From Thermoflexales bacterium (GTDB lineage Bacteria > Chloroflexota > Anaerolineae > B4-G1), in the NCBI GenBank assembly GCA_007123205.1, contig SKLM01000346.1, positions 1-36,041 on the forward strand: a DNA stretch of 36,041 nucleotides, read 5' to 3'. Positions 2,486-35,612 of the stretch are shown piece by piece (the first letter of the stretch is position 1; each line of letters opens with the position of its first letter). The notes beneath the pieces were generated by a model, which was given only the letters and a program-made list of their open reading frames with translations, did no database searches and had not been told where the DNA came from. A program made the position numbers and the translations under genes.

Positions 2486-2513
2486 ATTATATTATGATGT
2501 CCCCTGGAGTCAA
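2486..2513 (-). promoter_or_regulatory. Sigma70-type promoter for the SARP regulator gene
   Basis: The minus strand reads TTGACT (2513-2508), a 16 nt spacer, then TATAAT (2491-2486). This sits about 60 nt upstream of ATG 2420. Confidence 0.5.
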
Positions 2514-2640: not shown

Positions 2641-3190
2641 TGACAGTATAATCCGGGCCATTCCGACCATCGATTCCGATGGATTCGGTCCACTCATTCC
2701 GAGCCATTCCGTCCACCTGTACCGGCGGCACACCGACCACGTTTCCAAACACATCGGAATCGGTGGACGACACGGTTCGGATTCGGTGGACGGCACCCTC
2801 GGAATCCTGAAGGAAGGCAGAGCGCACAGGGAGCGACGCTCGTCAATCTTGCGTAGTTTTGGCATCCTTTGCGTCAAAAAAACAAAGGAGGGAGAGAAGG
2901 CCCCAGAAGGGTTAACCGTGCGCAAGATCGGAGGAGTTCTCCGTCTGAAGTGGGCCTGTGGACGGTCGAACCGGGCGATTGCCCGAAGCTGCTCCATCTC
3001 CCACAGCACCGTAGGTGAATGCGTCCAGCGGGCCGAGGACTCAGTGCTCGATTGGAGGCTTACTCCGGACTTGGATGAGGATGGGTTCCTTGAGATCCTC
3101 TTCCTCAGGCCGCTCGACTCCAGCTCGAGAGTCACCCCTTGCCCTGAGTGGTCTTGAATTCACGCTGCACTGCACAAGAAGAGTGTCACC
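2641..3190 (+). mobile_element. Truncated IS21-family insertion sequence (left end plus 5' part of istA only)
   Basis: The terminus-like TGACAGTATAATCC at 2641 is followed by several copies of a short motif in both orientations, as in IS21-family multi-repeat ends: CCATTCCGACCA, GGATTCGGTCCAC, CCATTCCGTCCAC, GGAATCGGTGGAC, GGATTCGGTGGAC. An istA-like N-terminus follows. No istB, no right end and no matching inverted terminus occur in the window. Confidence 0.6.
2918..3157 (+). pseudogene. IS21-family transposase IstA, N-terminal HTH fragment (frameshifted and truncated)
   Basis: From GTG 2918 the frame reads VRKIGGVLRLKWACGRSNRAIARSCSISHSTVGECVQRAEDSVLDWRLTPDLDEDGFLEILFLRP...PEWS*. This matches the typical IstA start (xRKIREVLRLkwxxGLSxRxIARSxGISRSTVxxYLxRAEAAGLSWPLPxxLDDxxLExLLF). 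After the stop the resemblance continues in the +1 frame (IHAALHKKSVTF versus IHxELxRKGVTL) and is then lost near 3190. Confidence 0.7.
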
Positions 3191-3439
3191 TTCTACGAAC
3201 AGCTCACGGAGGGGCAGGCAACCCCCGAGGAGCTGGTGCAGGAGTCATTCCGCTCTCTGCTGGCGCGGGAACCGAAGGAATCGATCCTGCGCGGGTTCGG
3301 TCTCACCGTCATCAGCGACTACTTCCCCGCCTACGAGCGGGTGATCAAGAAGCGGCTGTGACGGCAGAGGCCGGGTTTGCGCGGCTCCCGGTGCGGCTTA
3401 CGCCTCCCCACCCCGGCTGTGCGGTGGGTGGTCCGCCGA

Positions 3440-3468
3440 TTGACAGAATAGCGTCTATGTAGTATAAT
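3440..3468 (+). promoter_or_regulatory. Consensus sigma70-type promoter upstream of the opine-DH operon
   Basis: TTGACA (3440-3445), an exactly 17 nt spacer, then TATAAT (3463-3468). No other convincing promoter lies between here and the start at 3872. Confidence 0.6.
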
Positions 3469-3871
3469 ACGGTCGTACAGCATTCGTTGTACCCCGGCCA
3501 ATCTCCAGTTGGGACGTCTGGCCCGCCCCTGCGGGAGGAGGATCCGCAACGATCTTCCTGGTTCCCGGCAGATCACTTTGGCCACGCGACAGTACCCGTA
3601 GTAAGCGCCGTTCTACTTGTTGGACGCCAAGAATCGGGTCTCCGACCCATCTCTGGGACGTTCACGACACAATCTCCGTAGACAGACTGCAGACCTGCCA
3701 GGCGTCTTCGCCCCTGGCGTATGTGGTGCAGGTCCGATTGGAGCAGTGGCTGCCTCTCAGTCACCCTATGCTGTACCAATAGTCAGGGGCAAGGTTGCCC
3801 TTTGCCCCAGCGGCAATGATTGGGGCGTCCGAGCCCGGGGTCCGCACCTCTTCTACCAGGAAAGGAGGACA

Positions 3872-5134
3872 GTGTTGGCAAGAGTTGGCCTTTACGGTGT
3901 GAGCACGCAGTCGGGTCACGCTTTCCTGGCGGACTGCCTCTTGATGGGTCTCGACGTGTACGGATACGCGCGCCCGTCCCAGCATGGCATGGAGACAGTG
4001 GAGACGCTCGTCGAGCAAGGCGGGATCTACCTGCAGAGGCCGGCCGGTCGCGGGGAGGAAACCTCGAGATTCCTTCCTCTGGGGCAGGCCGAGGTTGGAC
4101 ATGATCTCAAGAGACTGGTCGATGGGTCCGATATCATCATCCTCGCTCATCCGTCCCATTACCAGGAGGATAGCGCCGGGCGGCTGAAAGAGGCAGGCCT
4201 GCTGGAGGAGCGCCGTGTCGTGCTCGTCCTCTCGCCCTCAAGGACTCTGGCGACGCCCTACCTATGGCGGATCCTCGGAGAGCACTATCCGGTCGTATGT
4301 TTCCAGACCTGCCCTTACTCATGCAAATCCACCTCCCCCGGCTCAACCTATATCAAACGAAGGAAGAACAGCTGGATCGGGTCGGTGGAGGGAGAGGTTC
4401 CCCGGGAACCCCTGGCCGCGTTGAAGCGGATGTTCCCCCAGTTGCTCACCAGCCGGATTCCTGCCACGACTTCACTGGGCAACATCGGGGCAGTGTTCCA
4501 CCCGGCCACTTACCTGCTGAACTATGATGGCATCCTGGCGGCGGCAGCAAAGAACACCGTCTTCCCTTTCTACGTTGAGGGTATCGCCGGAAACTCCCGC
4601 GTGGCCAGGGTCTTAGGGGAGATCGACCAGATCCGACTGCAGATCGCACGTGCGCTTGGCATCTCCGTCTTTGGGCTGGCGGATGATCCCAGAGAGGAGG
4701 AGTGGGCAGCCATCCTGAAGACGGTGCCGATGTCAGCAGAAGACTCGGCGGACACTCCGGAGCTAAAGCACTTGCGGGCGAAGTGCCTCCAGCCCATACA
4801 CGACTCAGTTGTCTCGGCACAACACTGGTTGGCCTACACCTATGGGGTCGCAAGAATTCCAGGCGAATCGCTGGGCGACGCCATCGGAAGAACGTCCACG
4901 TACCGGAGGAGATCGTATCCCCAGGAACGATACATCCACGAGGACGTTCCCACGGGCCTGGTTCCTCTCGAGAGCCTCGCTGACAGGCTAAGCATCCCAC
5001 ATGAGCCCATCACGCAGATCATCGATCTGTACCGAGAGGTGACGGGAAGGGATGGACGGAGGATTGGCAGGAACCTGGAGCCGTTCGATACCGAATACCT
5101 GAAGCGGTGTCTACAGGGTAGACTGGGGGCGTAG
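3872..5134 (+). CDS. Opine (octopine/nopaline-type) dehydrogenase family oxidoreductase
   Basis: ORF 3617..5134 is trimmed to the in-frame GTG 3872 (TTG 3875 is an alternative), just after AGGAGG at 3863-3868. The product tracks Arthrobacter-type opine dehydrogenase along its length as I remember it: ...GHAF near the N-terminus, TTSLGNIGAVFHPATYLLN, FPFYVEGI, and RYIHEDVPTGLVPLESLADRLSIP. Confidence 0.85.
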   Translation: MLARVGLYGVSTQSGHAFLADCLLMGLDVYGYARPSQHGMETVETLVEQGGIYLQRPAGRGEETSRFLPLGQAEVGHDLKRLVDGSDIIILAHPSHYQEDSAGRLKEAGLLEERRVVLVLSPSRTLATPYLWRILGEHYPVVCFQTCPYSCKSTSPGSTYIKRRKNSWIGSVEGEVPREPLAALKRMFPQLLTSRIPATTSLGNIGAVFHPATYLLNYDGILAAAAKNTVFPFYVEGIAGNSRVARVLGEIDQIRLQIARALGISVFGLADDPREEEWAAILKTVPMSAEDSADTPELKHLRAKCLQPIHDSVVSAQHWLAYTYGVARIPGESLGDAIGRTSTYRRRSYPQERYIHEDVPTGLVPLESLADRLSIPHEPITQIIDLYREVTGRDGRRIGRNLEPFDTEYLKRCLQGRLGA

Positions 5135-5135
5135 C

Positions 5136-7016
5136 GTGAGCAGGCGCTGTATGCTGGCCACGTTGGGAGACGACCCCCATACCCAGGGGCTGTACAGAGC
5201 CGCGCGGCTGGCCCGAAGAGCGGGGGTCGCCGTACACATCGTTCCGCCGGGAACACCGGATCGGGAGATTCTGGAGTGGATTCACCGGGAGGATCCGAGC
5301 TATATCGGCTTGAGCTACAGGCTCAGCCCCCAGATCGGTTTTCGACTGCTGACTCGGTTCTTGAGGCTTCTCGATGAGACGGGGCTGCTCCGCGAGGCCG
5401 ATGGAGCGCCGCGGAAGATCGCCTTCGCGGGCCTGCCCGACACAATGCGCGCTGTCGAAGAGGGGGAGGGGAGTCTTCCGTGCGCGGTCGCCACCATACA
5501 GCAGGATGATGACCTGCTCCAGAGGGCCGCAAGGGTGCTGCAGTTCTTTGAAGTGCCGGATTCGCCCAGACACGCCATTCTCCGAGAGCTTGAAGGCGAG
5601 GTCTATCCTCCCACCATAGCGGAGTTGGATCAGCTGGCCCGGGCGATCACCGCTGACGATTCGTACCGGGCCGAACCTCCGCTACCCGTTCCCTCAGCGG
5701 CGGCCATGCAGTCCCTGCCGCGACGCATGCGCGAGTCGGATATACCGGTTCTGCGAACGCACTTCGGCGTCCCTGGCGAGTCGATCCAGCCGACCGTCGA
5801 GGGGATGGCAGCCCTCGCCGAATCCAGGGTGGTCGACGAAATCTCGTTGGGTTCCTCGGACCTATCCCAACGATACTTCGGCAAGCCGGAGGAGTTCGTC
5901 GGGCGGAAGAACGACGGTGGCGTGCCCTACAAGACGTTCGACGACCTGGTGGAGCTGGCCCAGGCAGCGCGACGGGGTAACTTCCCCTCGGTGAAGCCCT
6001 ACGCCCACGTCGTCGATCTGGCGAGCTTCGTCGATACATGCATCGAGGCGGGCATGTTGACCGGAGCCCATCAAGCTATCCCGCTGTACTGGTTCAACGA
6101 GTTGGACGGCCGAGGCCCTATGACGGTCGCAGAATCGATCCGCCAACACCTGGCGGCGGTGAGAAGGCTGGCCGAACGGGACATCCCCGTCGAGATGAAC
6201 GATCCAAACCAGTGGTCATCCCGGTGGGCCCACGACACCATCATCTGCGCGGACTATGGGCTGATCACGGCTGTCATGCTCAACGCCGGCGTGCGCGATC
6301 TGGTGCTCCAGATGCAGGTCAACAAGCCCCGGGAGACCGGTGACCTGGCGGACCTGGCAAAGATGACCGCAAGCCTGGAACTGGTGAAGGAGCTGCTGCC
6401 CCGCGGTCGAGACAGGCCCACTGTGTGGAGGCAGACCCGAACGGGCGTCGGGTATTTCGATCCGGAACTCGATACCGCCAGGTTCCAGCTGGCGAGATCC
6501 ACCTTGCTGCAGATGCTGTTGTCGCCGGACATCATCCACGTGGTGAGCTACTGCGAGGCCGACCACGCGGCGACGGTGGAGGACATCGTGGACAGCTCGA
6601 AGCTGGTGAGACGGTGTGTTCGAGCTTTCAAGCAGCACGAGTCGCAGCTGAGGAGACACCTGCGCGACCCCATCGTGGTGGAGCGGCGAGCATTGCTGGT
6701 CGAGGAAGCACGATTCCTGCTGCGGAGGATCGCCCGTCTGGGCCCGGAGAGGGATGTGGCTCGACATCGCCGCCGACAGGCTGTCGACGGAGGCCCTCTG
6801 CGGCGGTTGGTGCCCGATCTTGCAGATGAGGGAGCGTTGATCGAAGCGTTGCGACGAGGCTACCTCGCTGCTCCCGGCATCTTCCATCCGGCATATCGGG
6901 CCTGCCGGAAGCTGACGACAGGACCGACCCAGAACGGGTTCATCGACTGCCTCGATCCGCGGACAGGCTTACGGGTGCCGGAAGACGTGAGACTGGCTTC
7001 GTCGGGACCTGGGTGA
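5136..7016 (+). CDS. Cobalamin-binding-domain protein fused to a large C-terminal domain (possible glutamate-mutase-E-like barrel); function unknown
   Basis: GTG 5136 lies 1 nt after the upstream stop (ATG 5151 is an alternative). Residues 13-18, DPHTQG, fit the DxHxxG B12 lower-ligand motif within CMLATLGDDPHTQGL...YIGLSYRLS...KIAFAGLPD. No CxxxCxxC radical-SAM motif is present. The segments RTHFGVPG, SLGSSDLSQRYFG, AIPLYWFNELDGRG, VEMNDPNQWSSRWAHD and GYLAAPGIFHP occur in the same order as comparable GlmE/MutE segments. That comparison is from memory and is not verified. Confidence 0.7.
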   Translation: MSRRCMLATLGDDPHTQGLYRAARLARRAGVAVHIVPPGTPDREILEWIHREDPSYIGLSYRLSPQIGFRLLTRFLRLLDETGLLREADGAPRKIAFAGLPDTMRAVEEGEGSLPCAVATIQQDDDLLQRAARVLQFFEVPDSPRHAILRELEGEVYPPTIAELDQLARAITADDSYRAEPPLPVPSAAAMQSLPRRMRESDIPVLRTHFGVPGESIQPTVEGMAALAESRVVDEISLGSSDLSQRYFGKPEEFVGRKNDGGVPYKTFDDLVELAQAARRGNFPSVKPYAHVVDLASFVDTCIEAGMLTGAHQAIPLYWFNELDGRGPMTVAESIRQHLAAVRRLAERDIPVEMNDPNQWSSRWAHDTIICADYGLITAVMLNAGVRDLVLQMQVNKPRETGDLADLAKMTASLELVKELLPRGRDRPTVWRQTRTGVGYFDPELDTARFQLARSTLLQMLLSPDIIHVVSYCEADHAATVEDIVDSSKLVRRCVRAFKQHESQLRRHLRDPIVVERRALLVEEARFLLRRIARLGPERDVARHRRRQAVDGGPLRRLVPDLADEGALIEALRRGYLAAPGIFHPAYRACRKLTTGPTQNGFIDCLDPRTGLRVPEDVRLASSGPG

Positions 7017-7034
7017 CCTGAGAAGGAGTTCGAG

Positions 7035-8105
7035 GTGAAAGTCGTTCTGGTCTATGATCCACGTTGGGGATACACACCCGCCGATCACACCCCTTTCTGG
7101 GCCAGTCTGGACACTGTAGAGTACGTGGCCGGACTGCTAGAGGAGACAGACAACGGCGTGTTGCTCGTCAAGGCTGACGACGGACTCGAATTCAGACTCA
7201 GGGAAATCTTGGGGAAGCACTCGAATCCTCTGGTGTTCTGGCTCAATAGCCACTTGCCGGCTGATTCTGGCAAAGACGTGCCCACTATCGAGATTTTGGA
7301 GAGGGTCGGGATCATGCACACTGGCCCTAGCTCTGAAGCCCAGGCTGTCGGCCGCGACAAAGAGGCAACGAAAACGGTTTTCAGAAGGCTGGGGTTGCCA
7401 ACGCCTGAATCCTATGTTGTTTGCCCCGGGGACTACTCACCGATCTGCCAAAGTGGTAATTGGGATGGCTATGTGATCGTGAAGCCGTTGCTACAGGGAA
7501 ACAGCAGGGGGATGGATGAGCTTTCTGTCGTTCGTGTGGACGATTTCGAGTCAATAAGGGAAAGAGCTGAACGAGTACACCTGGAATTCGACGAGCCTGT
7601 CCTCGTAGAAAGGTACATTGGAGGGAAGGGCGCAAGAGAATTCACTGCGTCAATGCTCATCTCTCACGATGGGAGAACAGCCGACCTGCCAATAGCGGAG
7701 ATCGATCTGTCTCAGGTTCCTGCTGCGCAGGGGAAGTTTAGGTTCTTGACCCACGACATAAAAGACGAGAAGTATTATCTGAAGACACCTGCAGAGCTTC
7801 CAGCAGAGATCATCAGCAGGATATCGTCCGATGTTGGAAGAATCGTCCAGGAGATTGGTTGCCGCGATATGACCAGAGTTGATATCAGGGGCGACTCCAC
7901 CGGTATCTGCTATATCGAAGTCAACGTCAATCCGGGCAAGAACAGGTTCAGCTACCTGACAGCATCGGCATATTCCCTCGGTTTGCGCTATCGCGAGATC
8001 ATCGCCTTCATCCCCTATCAAGCTATGCTCAAGTACAGGCTGGAACCTCCGAGAAAGCTGAGGGAGTTAGTAGGATCTGTCATGGCGTTGTTCGATGCCG
8101 TCTAG
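7035..8105 (+). CDS. D-alanine--D-alanine ligase-family ATP-grasp enzyme
   Basis: GTG 7035 lies 6 nt after GAAGGAG. The 356-aa product has Ddl-type ATP-grasp features: DKEATKTVFRRLGLPTPE, VIVKPLLQGNSRGM, VLVERYIGGKGAREFT, and MTRVDIRGDSTGICYIEVNVNPG. The canonical Ddl N-terminal GGxSxEHEVS motif is absent. Confidence 0.85.
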   Translation: MKVVLVYDPRWGYTPADHTPFWASLDTVEYVAGLLEETDNGVLLVKADDGLEFRLREILGKHSNPLVFWLNSHLPADSGKDVPTIEILERVGIMHTGPSSEAQAVGRDKEATKTVFRRLGLPTPESYVVCPGDYSPICQSGNWDGYVIVKPLLQGNSRGMDELSVVRVDDFESIRERAERVHLEFDEPVLVERYIGGKGAREFTASMLISHDGRTADLPIAEIDLSQVPAAQGKFRFLTHDIKDEKYYLKTPAELPAEIISRISSDVGRIVQEIGCRDMTRVDIRGDSTGICYIEVNVNPGKNRFSYLTASAYSLGLRYREIIAFIPYQAMLKYRLEPPRKLRELVGSVMALFDAV

Positions 8106-8187
8106 ACTGTCGCCCTGGGCACAGGTCAGGCAACGGTGCGGCAGCCCTCCCTGTACTGAGCCCCACAGAGTGGATACGTCCAATCTC

Positions 8188-8205
8188 GCGGGTTCGCCAA
8201 CCCGC
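8188..8205. terminator. GC-rich hairpin between convergent genes (possible bidirectional terminator, no U-tract)
   Basis: GCGGGTT-CGCC-AACCCGC gives a perfect 7-bp stem with a 4-nt loop. It sits in the 180-nt gap between the ATP-grasp stop (8105) and the SIS gene stop (8288). Confidence 0.35.
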
Positions 8206-8260
8206 TGCCGCACGAGATGCCAGGTATCGCGCCAGGCTTCTCCGCCAGCGTCCCATCGAG

Positions 8261-8287: not shown

Positions 8288-9325
8288 CTAGCGGGTCTCC
8301 GTCACCTTCGTAAGCCCCCGGGGATGGTCCGGGTCGTACCCCTTGGCCTCGGTGATGTGGAGAGCGAGCAGCTGTCCAGGGATTATGGACACCAACGGGG
8401 ACACCCATTCGGGCACAGGGGCCGGCAGCCGCAGCGGAACCCGGGCCATGGCCAGGGCCTCGTCCCGGTCCGAGATGATGCAGACCTCCGCCTGACGACC
8501 TACCAGCTCCTCCACCAGCGACAGCATGTCGCCATACACCGCCCCTTCTGGAAGGAGGGCGAAGACGGGGAACCCACCCTCGATGATGGCCACCGGCCCG
8601 TGGCGGAAGTCGGCTGAGGAGTACGGCTGGGCGACGATGTACGTTAGCTCCTTGATTTTGAGGGCCATCTCGACGGCCGTGGCGTAGTTGTACCCCCTTC
8701 CCAACACGACACACTGCGTGGCATGGGCATAGCGCTGGGCCGCAGCAGCGATCTCCTCCTCCAGCCCAAGGGTCTCCTTCACTGCAGCAGGCACGCGCCT
8801 CAAGATCTCCAGTCGTTCCTCGTCGTGCGCCAGATGAACTGCCAAGAGGGCGACCGCCCCCAGCTGAGCCGTATAGCTCTTAGTGGCGGCCACCGCCTTC
8901 TCCTCTCCGGCGCCCACCGCCAGCACGTGTTCTGCTGCGTCGCCCAGGGGTGAATCCGGCGTGTTGGTCACCGCTACCGTCAGCGCGCCCTGACGCCGTC
9001 CCTCCTCAACCACCGAGACGATGTCCGGCGACTGGCCCGACTGAGAGATACCGAGGACCAACGCGTCCCGCATGCGGGGCGGGGTCTGGTAGAGAGTGAA
9101 GAGTGACAACGGCGCTCGCGACACCGTCAGCCGATTGAGGGCACCGAAGAGGTGCTTGGCGTAGATGGCCGCGTTGTCAGAGGTGCCACGGGCGGATACA
9201 ACCACGTGGGAGACGTCGCGTTCGCGAATGATCTCGGCGATCTCCGCGGCCCGGGACACTTGTTCGTCGAACAGCCAGGTGAGGACCTGAGGTTGCTGGT
9301 GGATCTCGCGGCTGAGCTGGCTCAT
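8288..9325 (-). CDS. Stand-alone tandem-SIS-domain protein (GlmS isomerase-half / FrlB / AgaS-like sugar-phosphate isomerase or deglycase)
   Basis: ORF 8288..9427 is trimmed to ATG 9325 (GGAAGGAGATAGGA precedes it). The product starts MSQLSREIHQQPQVL... and contains VVVSARGTSDNAAIYAKHLF, VLGISQSGQSPDIV, AATKSYTAQL, LGRGYNYATAVEMALKIKELTYIVAQPYSSADFRHGP and DPDHPRGLTKVTETR. No glutaminase domain is present. Confidence 0.85.
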   Translation of the reverse strand: MSQLSREIHQQPQVLTWLFDEQVSRAAEIAEIIRERDVSHVVVSARGTSDNAAIYAKHLFGALNRLTVSRAPLSLFTLYQTPPRMRDALVLGISQSGQSPDIVSVVEEGRRQGALTVAVTNTPDSPLGDAAEHVLAVGAGEEKAVAATKSYTAQLGAVALLAVHLAHDEERLEILRRVPAAVKETLGLEEEIAAAAQRYAHATQCVVLGRGYNYATAVEMALKIKELTYIVAQPYSSADFRHGPVAIIEGGFPVFALLPEGAVYGDMLSLVEELVGRQAEVCIISDRDEALAMARVPLRLPAPVPEWVSPLVSIIPGQLLALHITEAKGYDPDHPRGLTKVTETR

Positions 9326-9409
9326 TCCTATCTCCTTCCGGCTGTAATAGGCCTCGATGGGGTGACGATACTCGTGCAGCGACACTCGCTTCTGGGCACA
9401 GGTCAACCC

Positions 9410-9418
9410 ATTATACCA
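9410..9418 (-). promoter_or_regulatory. Extended -10 promoter element for the SIS-domain gene
   Basis: The minus strand reads TGGTATAAT (TGn + perfect TATAAT) about 85 nt upstream of ATG 9325. No good -35 is present, which an extended -10 tolerates. Confidence 0.4.
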
Positions 9419-9662
9419 TCTTCTCATCTTCCAGAAAGGCAGCCTCCTTCGCTGACCGCCCTCCGTTCTGGCCCCCAGACTAGTACGACAAGCTCACATA
9501 AGCGAAGGCGGGCATTCTGAACCGCCATGGAGAATGAAGGTGTCGGTTCTCTGCCGGCACGCGCGAGATCCCTCGCCGCTCCAGCCGCTGGGCTTCCTGC
9601 GCTACCACGCAACCGGGCTCGTCGGTGCGATCTGCGGCGGTGCCGGAGACGGGCATTCCTCG

Positions 9663-9725: not shown

Positions 9726-9924
9726 CTGGACACGCTGGGCAAGTGCAAGGCAGCGGACCGCAGCGGCTTGACGCCACTCCGCTCCGCTGCGTGGCTAACT
9801 ACGAGCGGAGACTCCGTCCGGAGTTTCTTCCATTCGCGGTGCGCCACGCGCACCGTGGGTGTTCTCGGCATGACAGGAGCGGTCTTGTGGTGCCGGGTGG
9901 GTTGTTCCATAAGGCTTCCGTCGC

Positions 9925-13397: not shown

Positions 13398-13642
13398 GAA
13401 GTCGCCGCGGACCCACGGTGGGCCGCGAGCAGAGGATAGATCGCCAGAACACCAAATGCAGCGTGCCTTATCACCTTCCGGTGCTGCTTGGATCGCCAGG
13501 TCGACCGAGACGGCTGAGGTAGGAACGTGGCCTCCGGCCCGCGGTGTGACGCTCCGCCGCTCGCTTTCTCCTTGCCAACTCTGTCGCTCACCTGCCATCC
13601 GGCCAGTGCGCATTGCAGGTTTAGATCAACAAGGAGAAGCTC

Positions 13643-26227: not shown

Positions 26228-28681
26228 TCAGAGGCGAACGCGCTTCCCGTGCCGATCCCAAGGGAAGGTTCTGCCCACGACCACGGCCTGTTGTCCCAGG
26301 GTCTGCAGGGCCGCAGCAGCCTCATCGTCCGACACGATGAGGACCATCCCAACTCCCATGTTGAAGACGCGATACATCTCCATCTCATCTACCCCACCCA
26401 ACTCCTGAATCAAGCGGAAGATCGGGGGCACGTCCCAGGCGGCTCGGTCGAGTGCGACTCCAACTCCTGGTGGTAGCACACGGGGCAGGTTCTCGATGAA
26501 CCCTCCGCCCGTGATGTGCGCCATGGCCTTGACCTCCACTCCGGCGCCTGAGAGCATCTCGAAGTCGTCCAGATACGACTTGTGAGGTGTCAGCAAGACC
26601 TCGCCCAGGGGGCTACCCAGCTCGGGCAGCACCGTATCCCACGCCATCCCGGCCATCTCGCCGAAGACATGGCGGGCCAGCGAGAAGCCGTTGGTGTGGA
26701 GGCCGGTGGAGGGCAACCCCAGACAGACGTCGTTGGGAACAACCTTCTGCCCGTCGATGATCTGATCCCGCTCCACCCAGCCAACCAGCGTGCCCACCAG
26801 ATCGAAGGTCCCCGGCCTGTATACCCCGGGCATCTCCGCCGTCTCGCCTCCGATCAGCGCACACCCGCCGGCCCGGCACGCCTCGGCGCATCCTTCCACG
26901 ATAGCCGCAACGCGCTCCGGGTGGAGCGTATCGGCAGCGATATAGTCGAGAAAGAAGAGCGGCCGGGCTCCCTGCACCAGGACGTCGTTGATGCAATGGT
27001 TGACTATGTCGTGGCCCACCGTGTCATATCGCCCCATAGCCGCAGCGATCATCGTCTTGGTGCCGACGCCATCGGTAGAGGACACCAGAACGGGCCCCCG
27101 CGCCTGCTGGAGATCGTCCAGCGCATACAGTCCCCCGAAAGCTCCAATTCCTGTCAGAACTGACGACGTGTACGTGCTCTGAACCGCCTCCTTCATCAAC
27201 TCAACGGCACGCTCTCCCGCATCGATGTCCACCCCGGCGGCAGCGTACGCACTCGGCCGTGGCTCGCGCTCCCCAGCAAGGGGGGAGGCCGCACGGTGAT
27301 CCGGGGCTGCGATATCACGGCGATACTCGGCACCCTCGAAGTGTATTCGCTCGGTAGCCTGATAGGCCCTCTCTCGCGCCAGCTCCAGGTTCGGCCCTGT
27401 CGCCGTCACGGCCAGGACACGACCGCCCGCAGTGACTAAGGCGCCGTCCTCCTCCGCCGTCCCGGCCTGAAACACTACGGTGGACGGCAGGCTGTCCGCC
27501 GCCTGGACACCGGCGATGGGCTTGCCCACCTGGTAGGAACCGGGATAACCCGCCGATGCCACAACCACAGACACAGCGCTCTCGGCGCGCCACGCCACCT
27601 CTGTATCATCGAGCCTGCCCTCCAGGCAGGCGAGGATGACGTCCACGAGATCGGTCTCAAGCAGGGGCAAGATGACCTGCGCCTCCGGATCGCCAAAGCG
27701 GCAGTTGAACTCCAGCACCTGGGGCCCGTGGTCGGTCAGCATAAGCCCGGCGTAGAGGACGCCCACATAGGGCATGCCGCGCCGCCTCAGCCCGTCTATG
27801 GTGGGCTGCATAACCCGCTCCATCACCTCATCCACCAACGCTGGGGACAGGTGGGGAGACGGGGCGTAGCAGCCCATCCCACCGGTGTTGGGACCGCGAT
27901 CCCCGTCGTAGGCCCGCTTGTAGTCCCGAGCGGGTGGCATAGGAGCTAGTGTAGTCCCATCGCTGAAGGCGAGGAGGGATGCCTCCTCGCCCATCAAGCA
28001 CTCTTCGATAATCACCACGTCACCGGCTGGTCCAAAAACTCGGTCTCCCATCGTCCTCTGGAGGGCTTGCTCGGCGACTTCCAGCGTCGGACAGACGGCG
28101 ACACCCTTTCCCGCTGCCAGGCCACTGGCCTTGATCACCACAGGCGGGCCCTGCTGTCGGAGATAGGCGGCGGCAGCGTCGAGGTCGCGGAAGATCGCTC
28201 CCACTGCAGTGGGGATCCCCTCCTCCACCATGAAGCGCTTGGCGAAGGCCTTCGATCCCTCCAGTTGAGCGGCAGCAGCCCCCGGACCAAACGCACGCAG
28301 GCCCGCCGCGTCGAACGCGTCCACCACACCGTCAACCAAGGGAGCCTCCGGCCCCACGATGGTCAAATCGATCTCCCGGTCGCGGGCGAATGAGACCAGC
28401 GCCGGGATATCGCCCGCTCCGATGGGAACGTTCTCCGCGATCCCGGCTGTACCACCGTTCCCCGGGGTCACGAAGAGTTGGCTGACCCGCGTTGGAGGGC
28501 CAAGGCTTAGCTGCGCACGCTCGGTTCCGGAACTGGTGGGACCGGCCGATGTCGCATCTGCTTCCGATGTCGCATCCGCTTCCGATGTCGCATCCGCTTC
28601 ATACGATGCCTGTTCCACTCGCATCAGTTTCCAGGCCAGAGCGTGCTCGCGTCCGCCTGACCCCACTACCATCACGCGCAT
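26228..28681 (-). CDS. purD/purM: Bifunctional GAR synthetase - AIR synthetase (PurD-PurM fusion)
   Basis: This is a single 817-aa ORF. The N-terminal PurD part includes MRVMVVGSGGREHALAWKL..., FVTPGNGGTA, VIKASGLAAGKGV, GPNTGGMGCY and FEGAEYRRDIA. After a short linker the PurM part includes AYAAAGVDIDAGERAVELMK, GIGAFGGLY, LVSSTDGVGTK, GHDIVNHCINDVLVQGARPLFFLDY, GCALIGGETAEMPG and HITGGGFIENLPR. Confidence 0.9.
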   Translation of the reverse strand: MRVMVVGSGGREHALAWKLMRVEQASYEADATSEADATSEADATSAGPTSSGTERAQLSLGPPTRVSQLFVTPGNGGTAGIAENVPIGAGDIPALVSFARDREIDLTIVGPEAPLVDGVVDAFDAAGLRAFGPGAAAAQLEGSKAFAKRFMVEEGIPTAVGAIFRDLDAAAAYLRQQGPPVVIKASGLAAGKGVAVCPTLEVAEQALQRTMGDRVFGPAGDVVIIEECLMGEEASLLAFSDGTTLAPMPPARDYKRAYDGDRGPNTGGMGCYAPSPHLSPALVDEVMERVMQPTIDGLRRRGMPYVGVLYAGLMLTDHGPQVLEFNCRFGDPEAQVILPLLETDLVDVILACLEGRLDDTEVAWRAESAVSVVVASAGYPGSYQVGKPIAGVQAADSLPSTVVFQAGTAEEDGALVTAGGRVLAVTATGPNLELARERAYQATERIHFEGAEYRRDIAAPDHRAASPLAGEREPRPSAYAAAGVDIDAGERAVELMKEAVQSTYTSSVLTGIGAFGGLYALDDLQQARGPVLVSSTDGVGTKTMIAAAMGRYDTVGHDIVNHCINDVLVQGARPLFFLDYIAADTLHPERVAAIVEGCAEACRAGGCALIGGETAEMPGVYRPGTFDLVGTLVGWVERDQIIDGQKVVPNDVCLGLPSTGLHTNGFSLARHVFGEMAGMAWDTVLPELGSPLGEVLLTPHKSYLDDFEMLSGAGVEVKAMAHITGGGFIENLPRVLPPGVGVALDRAAWDVPPIFRLIQELGGVDEMEMYRVFNMGVGMVLIVSDDEAAAALQTLGQQAVVVGRTFPWDRHGKRVRL
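28548..28601. repeat. Perfect-phase 18-nt tandem repeat x3 inside the purD coding region (encodes EADATS x3)
   Basis: The plus strand reads GATGTCGCATCTGCTTCC, GATGTCGCATCCGCTTCC, GATGTCGCATCCGCTTCA. The minus-strand translation is ...YEADATSEADATSEADATSAG... Confidence 0.9.
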
Positions 28682-32615: not shown

Positions 32616-35570
32616 TCATGGTTCTTGCCCCGTTCCGAGAAACCGCCACGCCAACTCGTCAAGTTGACATTCTACCACGACTCCCCCGCCGATGCCACGA
32701 AAGCGGAGCACGCCGTCGTCAGTGACAGCGCCCAACCGGGCGACAGGCCACCCAACAAGGGCTTTCTCGAAGGCGGCCGCAGCCTCGGGCGCTACCTCCG
32801 CCAGGAATCGGGAGTTGCTCTCGGAGAACAGGGCCATCACATCTGTTTCCACTCCCGGGGTCCGCGGCAGGTCCGTCAGGTCAAGGGCCAGCCCGAATCG
32901 GCCGCCGATGGCCGTCTCAGCCGCCGCCAGCGCCAAACCACCCTCCGACAGATCGTGACAGGCCCGCACCAGTCCAGACAACATGGCTCTGTGGAGGCTG
33001 CGCATCATCTCGATGGCGTGGGGCACGGGCATTGGAACACTCCCCCCAGCTACACCGTGCAGCCGGTGCAAGAGCCCCCCACCCAGCTCGGCCCCTGTCT
33101 GGCCCACCACGTAGACCCAGTCTCCGGGGCGCTTCAGATCCATGGTGACTGCCTTCCGCACGTCGGGGACAACGCCCAGCGACGAGATGAGCAGCGAAGG
33201 CGGGATTGCCCGTTTCTCGCCGTGACGATCCACATATTCGTTGTTCAGGCTGTCCTTGCCGGAGATGAACGGCGTGCCGTATGCCAGGGCCGCATCGTGA
33301 CACCCCTGGGCTGCGCGGACGAGAGACCCCAGGCGGTCGGGAAGCGAGGGATTCCCCCAGCAGAAGTTGTCGAGAAGCGCGATGCGGTCGGGATCACCCC
33401 CCACTGCGACCACGTTCCGCACAGCTTCGTCCACTACCGCCCACGCCATCGCATAGGGATCTATCTGTCCGTAATAGGGGTTGATCCCGCAACCAATGGC
33501 CAGCCCCCGCCATCCCTCTATCTCCCACGGGCACAGAACCGCCGCATCAGACGGCCCATCAGCCTGCGCACCCACCAACGGCTTGACAAAGGTGGCTCCC
33601 TGAACCTCGTGATCGTAACGTCGAATCACCGATTCCTTGCTGGCCACGTCAGGGTCACCCAGGAGATGCAGCAAGACGGTGCTCAGATCCCCGGGCACCA
33701 GGACGTCCCCATCGGGAAGCAGCGGCGCTTTCCAATCGGCCCGCATCTTGGGCCGTGGCCAGCCGTCATGCACGAATTCCATATCCATATCGGCGACGGT
33801 CCTGCCCTGGTAACGGACGCGCAGTCGACCATCACCGGTGAAGCGCCCAATAACGGATACCTCGACCTCAAACCGGTCACAGATCTCCTCTAAGCGGGAC
33901 AAATTCTCGCCGGGAACGGCCAGCACCATACGCTCCTGGGCCTCTGATAGCCAGATCTCCCAGGGGCGCAGGCCCGGGTACTTCAGGGGCACCGTGCTCA
34001 GCTCCACCTCCACTCCGATGTCCCGTCCCATCTCCCCGGCTGCCGAGGAGAAACCGCCAGCCCCACAGTCGGTGATGGCGTGATAGAGGCCAGCGTCACG
34101 CGCCACGACAATGGCTTCCATCACTTTCTTCTCGGTGATGGGATCACCGATCTGCACCACGCTACCCACGGTCTGACCGGTCTCGTGGGTCAACTCGGCC
34201 GAGGAGAACGTCGCCCCGTGCAGCCCATCCCGTCCAGTGCGCCCGCCAATCGCGACACATAGATCGCCCGGTCGGGGGTGTCGCGGGTGCTGCCCTTGGC
34301 GAGCCAGTCCGACACAGCCGCAGTAGACCAGCGGGTTGGCAGTGTAGCCTCGGTCGTAGATGATGGCGCCGGAGACGGTGGGGATGCCCATCTTGTTCCC
34401 GTAATCCTCGATGCCCGCCACGACGCCGCGGGCGATGCGCCGGGGGTGAAGCACTCCCTCAGGAAGATCCTGCCGGTCGATGTCAAGCTCGCCAAAGCAG
34501 AGGACATCGGTGTTGGCAATGGGCCGCGCGGAGACCCCCAAGATGTCCCGGATCACGCCACCGACACCGGTATTCGCTCCCCCGAACGGTTCCAGCGCGG
34601 TGGGGTGATTGTGGGTCTCGACCTTGAACGACACCTCGAAGGTCCCATCAAAATCGACGATGCCGGCGTTGTCCACAAACGCCGACCGGACCCACTCCCG
34701 ATCGAGTCTCTCCGTGGCGGCCCGAATGGTCGTGCGCAGTAGACCGTCTATCCTCCCCTCGTCCGCTGCGGCCGGGTCGTAATCGGCGGGCAGGATACGC
34801 GACACCCCGCCTTCACACGAGAAGTCGATTTCGGCCTTGAAGGTCTTGTGCTGGCAATGCTCCGACCAAGTCTGAGCCAGGGTCTCTAGCTCCACGTCCG
34901 TAGGATCGCGCCCGATGCGACGGAACTCCTCCTGGATCACCTTCATCTCCTCCAGGGAGAGATAAAGGACCCTGTCGACGCTCATCCGGGCCAACCCCTC
35001 GTCATCGACCTCCCGGATCGCGACGATCTGGACCTGGTCCGACGGATCGGCCCGAGGTACGAAGGCCGGCTCCATCGGGCCCAGCGAGTAGGTCTGGATC
35101 ACGTCATTGCAGAGGACTCGCTGCGCGATCTCGTGGAGATCGTCGCTGGACAGATCACGCTGGCGACCGGTGAAGACGTAACGGGTGCCCGTGGCAACGG
35201 CCTCGATGGAGTTGATGTCCAAGTTCCGCGCACGGCGGAGCACATGGGTGGCCACGGGATCAGTGACACCGGCTCGATAGCCGACCTCGACGCATCGATC
35301 TGATCCTTGCTCGGTCAGTCTCTGGGCCTGTACCGCCGACGGGCCCGGGCCCGACCACCAACGAGAGCTTTCAACGATGGGATCGACCAACAGGGCATCC
35401 GCCAGCCGCTCGACCTGCGCACGAGAGAGATCGCCCCGGATGAACGTAAGATTGCTCACCTCAACAGAGTCCACTCTTACGGTCCCCGATTGCTTTATCT
35501 GCGTGGTTACGTCCAACGCCCGTCCATCCGGCTCCGGGGCGCGCCAGAAGACCTCAATGCAGTGAAGCAT
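32616..35570 (-). CDS. purL: FGAM synthase II with two N-terminal PurS-like modules (PurS-PurS-PurL fusion)
   Basis: ORF 32616..35579. ATG 35570 is preferred (AAGGA 8 nt upstream). Two PurS-like repeats occupy the first ~190 aa: IEVFWRAPEPDGRALDV...LLVDPIVE and VEVGYRAGVTDPVATHVLRRARNLD...VLCNDVIQTY. The small-PurL body follows: TLAQTWSEHCQHKTF, VETHNHPTALEPFGGANTGVGGVIRD, GGRTGRDGLHGATFSS and ISGKDSLNNEY. Confidence 0.9.
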   Translation of the reverse strand: MLHCIEVFWRAPEPDGRALDVTTQIKQSGTVRVDSVEVSNLTFIRGDLSRAQVERLADALLVDPIVESSRWWSGPGPSAVQAQRLTEQGSDRCVEVGYRAGVTDPVATHVLRRARNLDINSIEAVATGTRYVFTGRQRDLSSDDLHEIAQRVLCNDVIQTYSLGPMEPAFVPRADPSDQVQIVAIREVDDEGLARMSVDRVLYLSLEEMKVIQEEFRRIGRDPTDVELETLAQTWSEHCQHKTFKAEIDFSCEGGVSRILPADYDPAAADEGRIDGLLRTTIRAATERLDREWVRSAFVDNAGIVDFDGTFEVSFKVETHNHPTALEPFGGANTGVGGVIRDILGVSARPIANTDVLCFGELDIDRQDLPEGVLHPRRIARGVVAGIEDYGNKMGIPTVSGAIIYDRGYTANPLVYCGCVGLARQGQHPRHPRPGDLCVAIGGRTGRDGLHGATFSSAELTHETGQTVGSVVQIGDPITEKKVMEAIVVARDAGLYHAITDCGAGGFSSAAGEMGRDIGVEVELSTVPLKYPGLRPWEIWLSEAQERMVLAVPGENLSRLEEICDRFEVEVSVIGRFTGDGRLRVRYQGRTVADMDMEFVHDGWPRPKMRADWKAPLLPDGDVLVPGDLSTVLLHLLGDPDVASKESVIRRYDHEVQGATFVKPLVGAQADGPSDAAVLCPWEIEGWRGLAIGCGINPYYGQIDPYAMAWAVVDEAVRNVVAVGGDPDRIALLDNFCWGNPSLPDRLGSLVRAAQGCHDAALAYGTPFISGKDSLNNEYVDRHGEKRAIPPSLLISSLGVVPDVRKAVTMDLKRPGDWVYVVGQTGAELGGGLLHRLHGVAGGSVPMPVPHAIEMMRSLHRAMLSGLVRACHDLSEGGLALAAAETAIGGRFGLALDLTDLPRTPGVETDVMALFSESNSRFLAEVAPEAAAAFEKALVGWPVARLGAVTDDGVLRFRGIGGGVVVECQLDELAWRFLGTGQEP

Positions 35571-35612
35571 GGTTCCCATCCTTGATCAAGTGGTCAGATA
35601 CTAGCTGAGTTC

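Follow-up and report, generated by a model that had tools for sequence, protein, structure and literature searches.

A conserved opine-dehydrogenase and B12-binding protein gene pair next to an ATP-grasp ligase gene in a Thermoflexales bacterium

Glutamate mutase (GlmS/GlmE) of Clostridium cochlearium and C. tetanomorphum combines a base-off/His-on B12 domain with a TIM barrel and is encoded with an accessory protein, MutL (GlmL). More broadly, B12-binding domains with a DxHxxG motif serve carbon-skeleton mutases or methyl transfer and, to our knowledge, only about a dozen adenosylcobalamin isomerase reactions are known, new ones being rare. Opine dehydrogenases reductively couple an amino acid to a 2-oxo acid, in a reversible reaction, and Ddl-type ATP-grasp enzymes form amide, peptide or depsipeptide bonds. 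Genes for these three kinds of protein lie together in a 36,041-nt stretch of DNA from a Thermoflexales bacterium (Chloroflexota; contig SKLM01000346.1), referred to below as the window, where the segment 3872-8105 is, judged by its layout, one operon for a small biosynthetic module. All on the forward strand, it comprises an opine-dehydrogenase-family gene (gene 1; 3872-5134; 420 aa), a gene fusing a B12-binding domain to a GlmE-like TIM barrel (gene 2; 5136-7016; 626 aa) and a Ddl-type ATP-grasp ligase gene (gene 3; 7035-8105; 356 aa). An earlier note on this DNA, made from the letters alone, had drawn attention to the linkage of the three chemistries and knew of no characterised pathway combining them. 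Conserved gene neighbourhoods bear out the linkage, and no account combining an opine dehydrogenase with a B12 mutase, an ATP-grasp enzyme or cyclic di-AMP (c-di-AMP) was found in the literature. What is new here is a widespread, uncharacterised B12-mutase subfamily with an unprecedented, obligate opine-dehydrogenase partner; together, the two enzymes probably make an uncharacterised amino-acid-like building block by an undescribed B12 reaction.

Compared with these systems, gene 2 has both domain types of glutamate mutase but fuses the two subunits, S then E, shows no detectable sequence similarity to GlmE and is always paired with an opine dehydrogenase; its substrate is probably different, and neither MutL/GlmL nor methylaspartase is encoded in the window or found among the annotated recurrent neighbour families. 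Gene 1 shares with N-(1-D-carboxyethyl)-L-norvaline dehydrogenase (CENDH), octopine dehydrogenase and the CntM-type enzymes their fold, the Octopine_DH helical domain, the catalytic His and the Arg/Asp motif, whereas its identity to known opine dehydrogenases is ca. 21%, its nucleotide loop is that of clade 1 (G-V-S-T-Q-S-G) and it lies neither on a Ti plasmid nor in a metal-uptake operon. Its partner, unlike that of CntM-type enzymes, is a B12 mutase and not a nicotianamine-synthase-like enzyme; no CntL-type aminobutyryl transferase occurs among the scanned open reading frames (ORFs) of the window or the annotated recurrent neighbour families. Gene 3 has the ATP-grasp C-terminal domain of Ddl/Van ligases with its ATP/Mg motifs, but is accompanied by the mutase and dehydrogenase pair rather than by murein synthesis genes.

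The nearest pathway analogy is that of pyrrolysine, where one small operon encodes a mutase that rearranges an amino-acid carbon skeleton by radical chemistry (PylB), an amide ligase of the Ddl-like ATP-grasp type (PylC) and an NAD(P)-dependent dehydrogenase whose substrate is an amine or imine (PylD). The window operon has the same three chemistries; this is an analogy only, with no sequence relationship claimed, and PylB is a radical-SAM rather than a B12 enzyme while PylD is outside the Octopine_DH family. On the product side, glycans decorated with opine residues are found in Providencia, where alanopine is amide-linked to Qui4N in P. alcalifaciens O35 and N-epsilon-(1-carboxyethyl)lysine to GalA in P. 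rustigianii O14 (PMC10609480). Similarly, loci of the dehydrogenase and mutase pair often encode a dTDP-4-amino-4,6-dideoxyhexose transaminase, RmlA and ATP-grasp ligases, and the contexts with both transaminase and ligase match opine residues amide-linked to Qui4N or GalA. Unlike these loci, however, the Providencia systems have no known B12 enzyme, and Providencia is absent from the carriers found.

The gene pair and its ATP-grasp partners

Scanning species-representative genomes with an alignment of the mutase returned 74 loci, to which look-ups in metagenomes added more, giving ca. 100 related loci in all (L numbers below). The dehydrogenase and mutase genes are both present in 68 of them by tblastn, 43 pairs being less than 150 nt apart and the remainder separated by at most 6.8 kb; only L025 and L058 have sufficient flanking sequence yet no dehydrogenase gene. 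Across loci, identity to the window dehydrogenase covaries with identity to the window mutase (r = 0.97, n=50). This core spans a dozen phyla, the carriers belonging to Chloroflexota, Planctomycetota, Myxococcota, Bacteroidota, Bacillota, Thermotogota, Synergistota, Hydrogenedentota, Cloacimonadota, Desulfobacterota and others, and the invariable pairing with an opine dehydrogenase narrows the candidate substrates of the mutase. The mutase family has at least 782 matches, with 50-78% identity across phyla, and a profile search of 1.84 billion representatives, which also supplied remote homologs (P numbers below), returned 488 clusters at 50% identity (E <=1e-3). Besides clade 1, to which the window pair belongs, a paralogous clade 2 (31-35% and 25-29% identity) occurs in Anaerolineae, Chloroflexia and one metagenome-assembled genome (MAG) of an Asgard archaeon; this last pair (L060, 9959-12711) is carried by a 604-kb contig of the Promethearchaeota MAG. 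The cultured carriers are three Bacillaceae (Amphibacillus marinus CGMCC 1.10434, Halolactibacillus alkaliphilus CGMCC 1.6843 and Natronobacillus azotifigens 24KS-1), which make the pair directly testable.

The conserved unit is the dehydrogenase and mutase pair rather than the trio. The trio had been read as a minimal cassette for a modified opine or dipeptide-like molecule, expected to co-occur across genomes: such a molecule stays the best general reading and the pair does recur, but the Ddl-type ligase of the window lacks general conservation beside it. Orthologs of gene 3 (60-80% identity) are found in Chloroflexota only, often beside a clade-2 mutase and dehydrogenase pair, and elsewhere the pair has other ATP-grasps or none. 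ATP-grasp genes near the pair were identified by clustering and hidden Markov model searches; of 39 loci whose flanks reach 4 kb or more on each side, 19 have one within 5 kb, in most cases as the immediate neighbour on the same strand. They are of the LAL type (ATP-grasp_4 + LAL_C2), the "sugar-transfer associated" ATPgrasp_ST type, the Ddl type or a cluster designated c42.

The order of the genes also varies. In L086, L091, L092, L095 and L096, the ligase gene comes immediately 5' of a clade-2 pair, in the order ligase-mutase-dehydrogenase, L093 being cut after the mutase. The order is mutase-dehydrogenase-ligase in L069 and L073 and dehydrogenase-mutase-ligase, with a clade-1 pair, in the window. 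In L104 (35-4463), an Octopine_DH gene is directly followed by the gene for an 863-aa fusion of B12-binding, Met_asp_mut_E and RimK/GshB-type ATP-grasp domains and then by a Peptidase_C26/GATase gene, the gamma-glutamyl-hydrolase-like character of which is a hint of glutamyl-amide intermediates. With three different orders of the genes, two pairs that are paralogous and a physical fusion, adjacency by chance is very unlikely: the three operon genes are functionally linked. In the window, the GC content of the ligase gene is 53% (62% at third codon positions, GC3) versus 60-64% (GC3 73-77%) for the two other operon genes, which suggests that it joined the pair separately; GC3 is ca. 80% in the genes neighbouring the operon.

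Features of the three encoded proteins

Members of the main clade of the gene 2 family are named in their sources only as "hypothetical" or "B12-binding domain protein", and Pfam holds no model for their catalytic domain. The Pfam B12-binding model matches gene 2 at aa 4-67 with 23.9 bits, under its gathering cut-off of 32.1; 19 of the 22 family members are matched, and clade-2 proteins, with matches above the gathering score, are more canonical than those of clade 1. Met_asp_mut_E (PF06368) does not match the window protein and finds one of the 22 relatives, at E 0.12. The Pfam searches proposed for the three proteins in the earlier note thus gave a mixed outcome, with Octopine_DH and Dala_Dala_lig_C matched, B12-binding below threshold and Met_asp_mut_E without a match. 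The DxHxxG motif of gene 2 (D13-P-H15-T-x-G18) shows little or no variation in the family, His15 and Gly18 being fully invariant, and the SxL and GG positions of the base-off/His-on cobalamin motif read S60-Y-R-L63 and A98-G99 further on; the remaining ca. 450 C-terminal residues contain more than 100 invariant columns. Clade-1 mutases carry an extra helical insert of ca. 90 aa.

In the AlphaFold2 model of gene 2 (predicted local distance difference test, pLDDT, 89), a helical linker connects a Rossmann-like B12 domain to a TIM barrel. Foldseek ranked glutamate mutase subunit E (1cb7_B) first, with E 2e-11 and a template-modelling (TM) score of 0.62 (target-normalised), followed by lysine 5,6-aminomutase, methylmalonyl-CoA mutase, ornithine 4,5-aminomutase, IcmF and 2-hydroxyisobutyryl-CoA mutase; every match with E <=1e-5 is an adenosylcobalamin isomerase. 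The N-terminal domain aligns with small B12 subunits at TM 0.75-0.79. A PDB sequence search with the mutase profile returned a weak B12-domain match (4jgi) only. Among the remote homologs, P0268, P0270 and P0276 are fused to MutL (PF13941; 189-277 bits), and P0253 combines B12-binding, a Met_asp_mut_E match of 27.5 bits (gathering score 26.6) and a C-terminal RimK/GshB-type ATP-grasp; the clade-2 mutase of L086 has a weak Met_asp_mut_E match (20.5 bits). It is therefore by fold and distant relatives, not by its own sequence, that gene 2 is tied to glutamate mutase: the GlmE fold match, the DxHxxG motif, the lack of room for an N-terminal cap, the MutL fusions and the Met_asp_mut_E matches of P0253 and L086 argue that it is probably a fused S+E glutamate-mutase-like isomerase of an uncharacterised subfamily, probably adenosylcobalamin-dependent.

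As to the role of the B12 domain, the earlier note had named both carbon-skeleton mutation and methyl transfer, of which the evidence supports the first and not the second. A function in methyl transfer or regulation (MetH/MtaC-like or CarH-like) could draw on the weak B12-binding match and on a low-ranked fold match to the pterin-binding TIM barrel of dihydropteroate synthase (3tye). However, the B12 domain opens at residue 4, so that there is no room for an N-terminal helical cap, the top fold matches are all adenosylcobalamin isomerases with E values of 1e-8 to 1e-11 versus 1e-3 for the pterin barrel, MutL fusions occur in the family, and methyl-donor enzymes and DNA-binding domains are not present, making such a function highly improbable.

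The B12-mutase-homolog-MutL fusions of 1226 aa (P0268) were located in L105 (3908-7588) and L106 (4255-7935), where they come after genes for ABC ATPases of the oligopeptide type and an AAT (PF03417) gene; no opine dehydrogenase gene lies in their vicinity. They form a separate, likewise uncharacterised branch of the superfamily.

The gene 1 product matches Octopine_DH with 75.7 bits (gathering score 30), and the profile of its family retrieves CENDH (1bg6) with E 2e-27. Foldseek likewise places 1bg6 first for its AlphaFold2 model (pLDDT 92; TM 0.83), and the next eleven matches are all opine dehydrogenases, those of the octopine, yersinopine, pseudopaline and staphylopine types included. H210, in "NIGAVFHP", pairs with "NVNAVMHP" of 1bg6, and R353-Y-x-x-E-D358 pairs with "RYFFED" of 1bg6 and "RYLTED" of octopine dehydrogenase; H210, R353 and D358 are invariant across 21 dehydrogenase sequences. 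By sequence, predicted fold and catalytic His/Arg/Asp, gene 1 thus qualifies as an enzyme of the opine-dehydrogenase family. In clade 1, the nucleotide loop (aa 6-18; window 3872-3930) contains invariant Ser11 and Gly15, and the clade-2 enzymes keep a canonical IGAGNGG loop and match NAD-binding Pfam models. Arg34, at the end of strand beta-2, is also invariant; NADH-dependent CENDH has Asp at this position. From general knowledge of Rossmann folds, an Arg at the end of beta-2 suggests NADPH and, hence, use in the reductive direction.

Gene 3 scores 61 bits with Dala_Dala_lig_C (PF07478) and is not matched by Dala_Dala_lig_N; its best NCBIfam Ddl/Van score is 89.9 bits against a Ddl subfamily cut-off of 243, all other Ddl/Van cut-offs likewise being far out of reach, and it is ca. 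25% identical to Ddl/VanA enzymes of solved structure. Comparison with 4egj indicates that the VKP motif, the acidic residue before the loop, EVN and PG are retained. Its sequence is that of a remote Ddl-type ATP-grasp with intact ATP/Mg motifs. In a Pelolinea locus (L087, 5813-9128), the genes ahead of a gene 3 ortholog are a true Ddl-like one (109 bits) and one resembling alanine racemase, and the 8 kb upstream and ca. 700 nt downstream of the ortholog contain no mutase gene. This context hints that the gene 3 ligase family handles D-amino-acid-type substrates.

Genomic contexts and proposed chemistry

The commonest recurrent neighbours of the pair are genes for cell-envelope glycans, a placement seen in Bacteroidales, several Bacillota and some Chloroflexota. 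They encode glycosyltransferases, a Bac_transf sugar transferase, a DegT/WecE transaminase, an aldo-keto reductase, PGA_cap, a flippase and RmlA, the WecE-type transaminase being an enzyme for dTDP-4-amino-4,6-dideoxyhexose. In gut Bacteroidales, the pair was found in surface-glycan loci of Alistipes, Muribaculaceae and Rikenellaceae; the window operon itself has no adjacent glycan genes.

On balance, we favour a general scheme in which mutase and opine dehydrogenase act on one and the same amino-acid-derived metabolite, the product of which is then linked as an amide to an acceptor by an ATP-grasp enzyme. The mutase would carry out an adenosylcobalamin-dependent radical 1,2-rearrangement of a glutamate-like acidic skeleton, and the dehydrogenase, probably NADPH-dependent, would join an amine and a 2-oxo acid reductively. 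Two orders can be envisaged: glutamate might be converted to a 3-methylaspartate-like acid that is then N-carboxyalkylated, or an opine might be formed from 2-oxoglutarate and then be rearranged in its N-substituted glutamyl part. Using ATP, the ATP-grasp enzyme would finally attach the branched N-carboxyalkyl (opine-like) or methyl-branched amino acid to an acceptor, which in many lineages is probably a precursor of cell-envelope glycans (for example, a 4-amino-4,6-dideoxyhexose) and in Chloroflexota may be of the D-amino-acid type or a peptide. Of this scheme, the domain identities, the folds, the catalytic motifs of dehydrogenase and ligase and the gene linkage are established by the analysis; adenosylcobalamin use, substrate, reaction order and acceptor are inferred. 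That the module works in the biosynthetic direction is suggested by the ATP-consuming ligase, the glycan-synthesis neighbours and Arg34.

Only tentatively do we propose the more specific reading that the 626-aa family is an unrecognised adenosylcobalamin mutase acting on an opine (an N-carboxyalkyl amino acid) or its direct precursor, so as to yield, together with its obligate dehydrogenase partner, a new class of methyl-branched opine building blocks, with ATP-grasps attaching these blocks to envelope glycans or peptides in gut Bacteroidales, anaerobic-digester bacteria, Chloroflexota and others, under c-di-AMP control in some lineages. The gene 2 family may hold a new B12 reaction, and its frequent surface-glycan placement in gut Bacteroidales would tie B12 availability to cell-surface chemistry.

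Several observations weigh against these proposals. The hhalign comparison with GlmE, whose query sequence agreed with 1cb7_B, gave a probability below 1% for both clades; the pattern GN[FY]P..[KR].. shows only a local resemblance to "VNLPLQARHG" of GlmE, and the mapping of the substrate-binding arginine claw of GlmE (R66, R100, R149) and of its E171 is unreliable. A MutL-like reactivase, an adenosyltransferase and a B12 riboswitch are all missing from the window, and the absence of a canonical GxGxxG from the clade-1 dehydrogenases makes their cofactor use uncertain. An ATP-grasp gene is missing from the surroundings of about half of the loci, and almost all carriers are uncultured. Furthermore, some contexts would also fit uptake and catabolism: the pair has no partner or an MFS transporter beside it in Gemmataceae, Myxococcota and others, and, in Anaerolineae-type loci, it is preceded by an RpiR regulator (L080 and L082) and followed by an SBP_bac_5 ABC transporter (L080).

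The main risk for a claim of new chemistry is ordinary 3-methylaspartate formation, with gene 2 as a plain fused glutamate mutase making (2S,3S)-3-methylaspartate and dehydrogenase and ligase as ordinary tailoring enzymes. GlmE is the best fold match of gene 2, there are relatives with a MutL fusion and one that attains the gathering score of Met_asp_mut_E, some clade-2 loci have genes for glutamate dehydrogenase and aspartate aminotransferase in their vicinity, and 3-methylaspartate is a known natural-product building block. We nevertheless regard this explanation, which overlaps with the favoured scheme, as unlikely: Met_asp_mut_E detects a single one of 22 members, hhalign to GlmE is not significant, the 50-78% identity kept across phyla points to a distinct, strongly constrained specificity, and known glutamate mutase systems have no such obligate opine-dehydrogenase partner.

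The transporter and regulator contexts would suit a catabolic module, in which the dehydrogenase would cleave an imported opine- or peptide-like compound oxidatively to give an amino acid and a 2-oxo acid, and the mutase would feed the glutamate-like product into central metabolism. Indeed, the regulator directly 5' of the pair in L080 and L082 is of the RpiR/MurR type, the downstream transporter of L080 is of the oligopeptide/opine type, MFS transporters adjoin the pair in several phyla, the MutL-fused relatives of L105 and L106 come after oligopeptide ABC ATPases, and opine dehydrogenases are reversible; the score of the L080 SBP_bac_5 protein as a CntA-like protein is weak (100 versus a cut-off of 800). 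Yet an ATP-grasp ligase, adjacent or even fused, would have no role in such a module, glycan biosynthesis is the commonest recurrent context, methylaspartase and mesaconase genes are not among the annotated recurrent neighbour families and Arg34 suggests NADPH and reductive use. Catabolism thus appears improbable.

Riboswitches for c-di-AMP directly precede the pair in two unrelated lineages. In L082, a ydaO element (RF00379; 3870-4000, +; 88.8 bits) lies 168 nt 5' of the dehydrogenase gene and, in L009, from a Tissierellia MAG, an element at 9770-9897 (+; 111 bits) lies 103 nt 5' of the mutase gene, a further one at 13467-13521 (+) being cut by the contig end. Potassium homeostasis and cell-wall maintenance are governed by c-di-AMP (PMC9960051), which is also tied to osmotic stress responses (PMC10117811), and the riboswitch link suggests a role in envelope or osmotic homeostasis. 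It also brings in the possibility of a free small molecule, either a compatible solute or an exported opine-type chelator or signal, with the window ligase only extending it to a dipeptide-like product. Consistent with this, many carriers have the pair alone or plus an MFS transporter, a soda-lake sample label (L076, "SL_1KL_011_SED") is attached to the assemblies that yielded the twin of the window and its nearest relatives, the carriers in culture belong to Amphibacillus, Halolactibacillus and Natronobacillus, and opine metallophores (staphylopine and relatives) are made with the same dehydrogenase fold. On the other hand, the riboswitch was found in just two of the 83 sources searched, the other 81, the window included, having none; a nicotianamine-synthase-like gene is not among the window genes or annotated neighbours; and glycan contexts dominate in Bacteroidota, Bacillota and some Chloroflexota. 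A free product is therefore rather unlikely, though it overlaps with the favoured scheme in that one building block could serve free or attached.

In three Chloroflexota-type loci (L077, 3428-6637; L078; L079), three genes lie directly 5' of the pair within a dTDP-4-amino-4,6-dideoxyhexose glycan locus; they encode an ApgM-like enzyme, a pyridoxal-phosphate enzyme like cysteate/threonine synthase and a bona fide CysH phosphoadenylyl-sulfate reductase, and a sulfonated amino acid may be involved in this group. The ApgM-like enzyme has been proposed to be a homoserine kinase or PhpG-like. Molybdopterin genes next to clade-2 pairs of Anaerolineaceae were considered as a functional hint and set aside, as they look like lineage synteny.

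Expression signals and local neighbours in the window

Upstream of gene 1, a consensus sigma-70 promoter (TTGACA-17-TATAAT; 12/12 match) lies at 3440-3468 (+), the sole site with at most one mismatch in the 36-kb window (0/100 in shuffles), and is followed by a 5' leader of ca. 400 nt (3469-3871, +). With gaps of 1 nt from the gene 1 stop to gene 2 and of 18 nt from the gene 2 stop to gene 3, the ORFs and the promoter confirm the layout described in the earlier note. The L075 relative has an 11/12 promoter ca. 550 nt ahead of its dehydrogenase gene, and long leaders are also seen in other relatives. Gene 1 most likely starts at 3872 (or 3875), given homologs of 419-425 aa; for this reason, and as the upstream region has no protein-level conservation, a 505-aa form starting at TTG 3617 was rejected. 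The GTG start of gene 2 at 5136 is backed by N-terminal conservation (M-[ST]-R-x-C-[VL]-L), and that of gene 3 at 7035 is preceded by an AAGGAG Shine-Dalgarno sequence.

The only leader segment common to the window, L001, L075, L076 and L107 is a 27-nt box at 3627-3653 (+), CCAAGAATCGGGTCTCCGACCCATCTC, which was defined by alignment with L001, L075 and L076. A scan of the metagenome collection for this box gave one further copy, that of the closely related L107, upstream of a dehydrogenase and mutase pair, and in every case the box starts 240-245 nt 5' of the dehydrogenase start codon. Rfam searches of the window leader at gathering and permissive thresholds found no family, and a home-made c-di-AMP riboswitch model had no match in the window. 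The leader was not retained as a structured RNA, its fold showing a modest gain only over shuffles (z = -1.95), and covariation in a hairpin of the box was not counted, the register slipping by one between lineages. At the other end, the hairpin reported for the operon was recovered as nested hairpins (8136-8213) between the convergent operon end and the next gene, with a 10-bp perfect inverted repeat (8136-8145/8204-8213) enclosing a 7-bp hairpin (8188-8194/8199-8205) and no T-run. That no other gene lies on the operon strand, as had also been remarked, is true and carries no information.

The regulator divergent from the operon (1-2420, -; cut by the window edge), previously called SARP/AfsR-type, has BTAD (70.7 bits) and AAA_16 (94.3 bits) domains by Pfam and provides context only. 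Its counterpart on the twin contig L103 (MAG assembly GCA_007125045.1) is a 1182-aa protein with TPR repeats. Among the loci examined, such a regulator stands beside the pair only in the window and in this twin, so that the suggestion of a SARP-controlled specialised-metabolite cluster is backed by a single genome. The commonest recurrent context is that of glycan genes and not of a classical natural-product cluster. A near-consensus promoter (TTGACT-16-TATAAT; 11/12) faces the regulator at 2513..2486 (-). The "dead IS21 end" proposed between regulator and operon is indeed a transposase fragment with a helix-turn-helix (2918-3157, +), but it is only 79 aa long and matches IS66 TnpA (E 1e-5) better than IS21 (E 1e-4); it is followed by the 3' end of a gene with no family match (3161-3361, +). 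Together, the regulator-facing promoter, the transposase fragment and the gene remnant look like insertion debris. On the right, the convergent SIS gene (8288-9427) encodes, as described before, a double-SIS protein like the GlmS C-terminus or NagB-II; it was dropped as a cassette member upon finding no tblastn match in any related locus. The transposase fragment likewise recurs in no related locus. Regulator, transposase fragment and SIS gene are local accidents.

The remaining window is chromosomal housekeeping, with a purine operon, guaB, purB, CarD, CoaX and an ECF transporter. Two fusions were observed in the purine operon, both on the reverse strand: one of GARS and AIRS (purD-purM; 817 aa; 26228-28681) and one of PurS with FGAM-synthase linker/AIRS domains (987 aa; 32616-35579).

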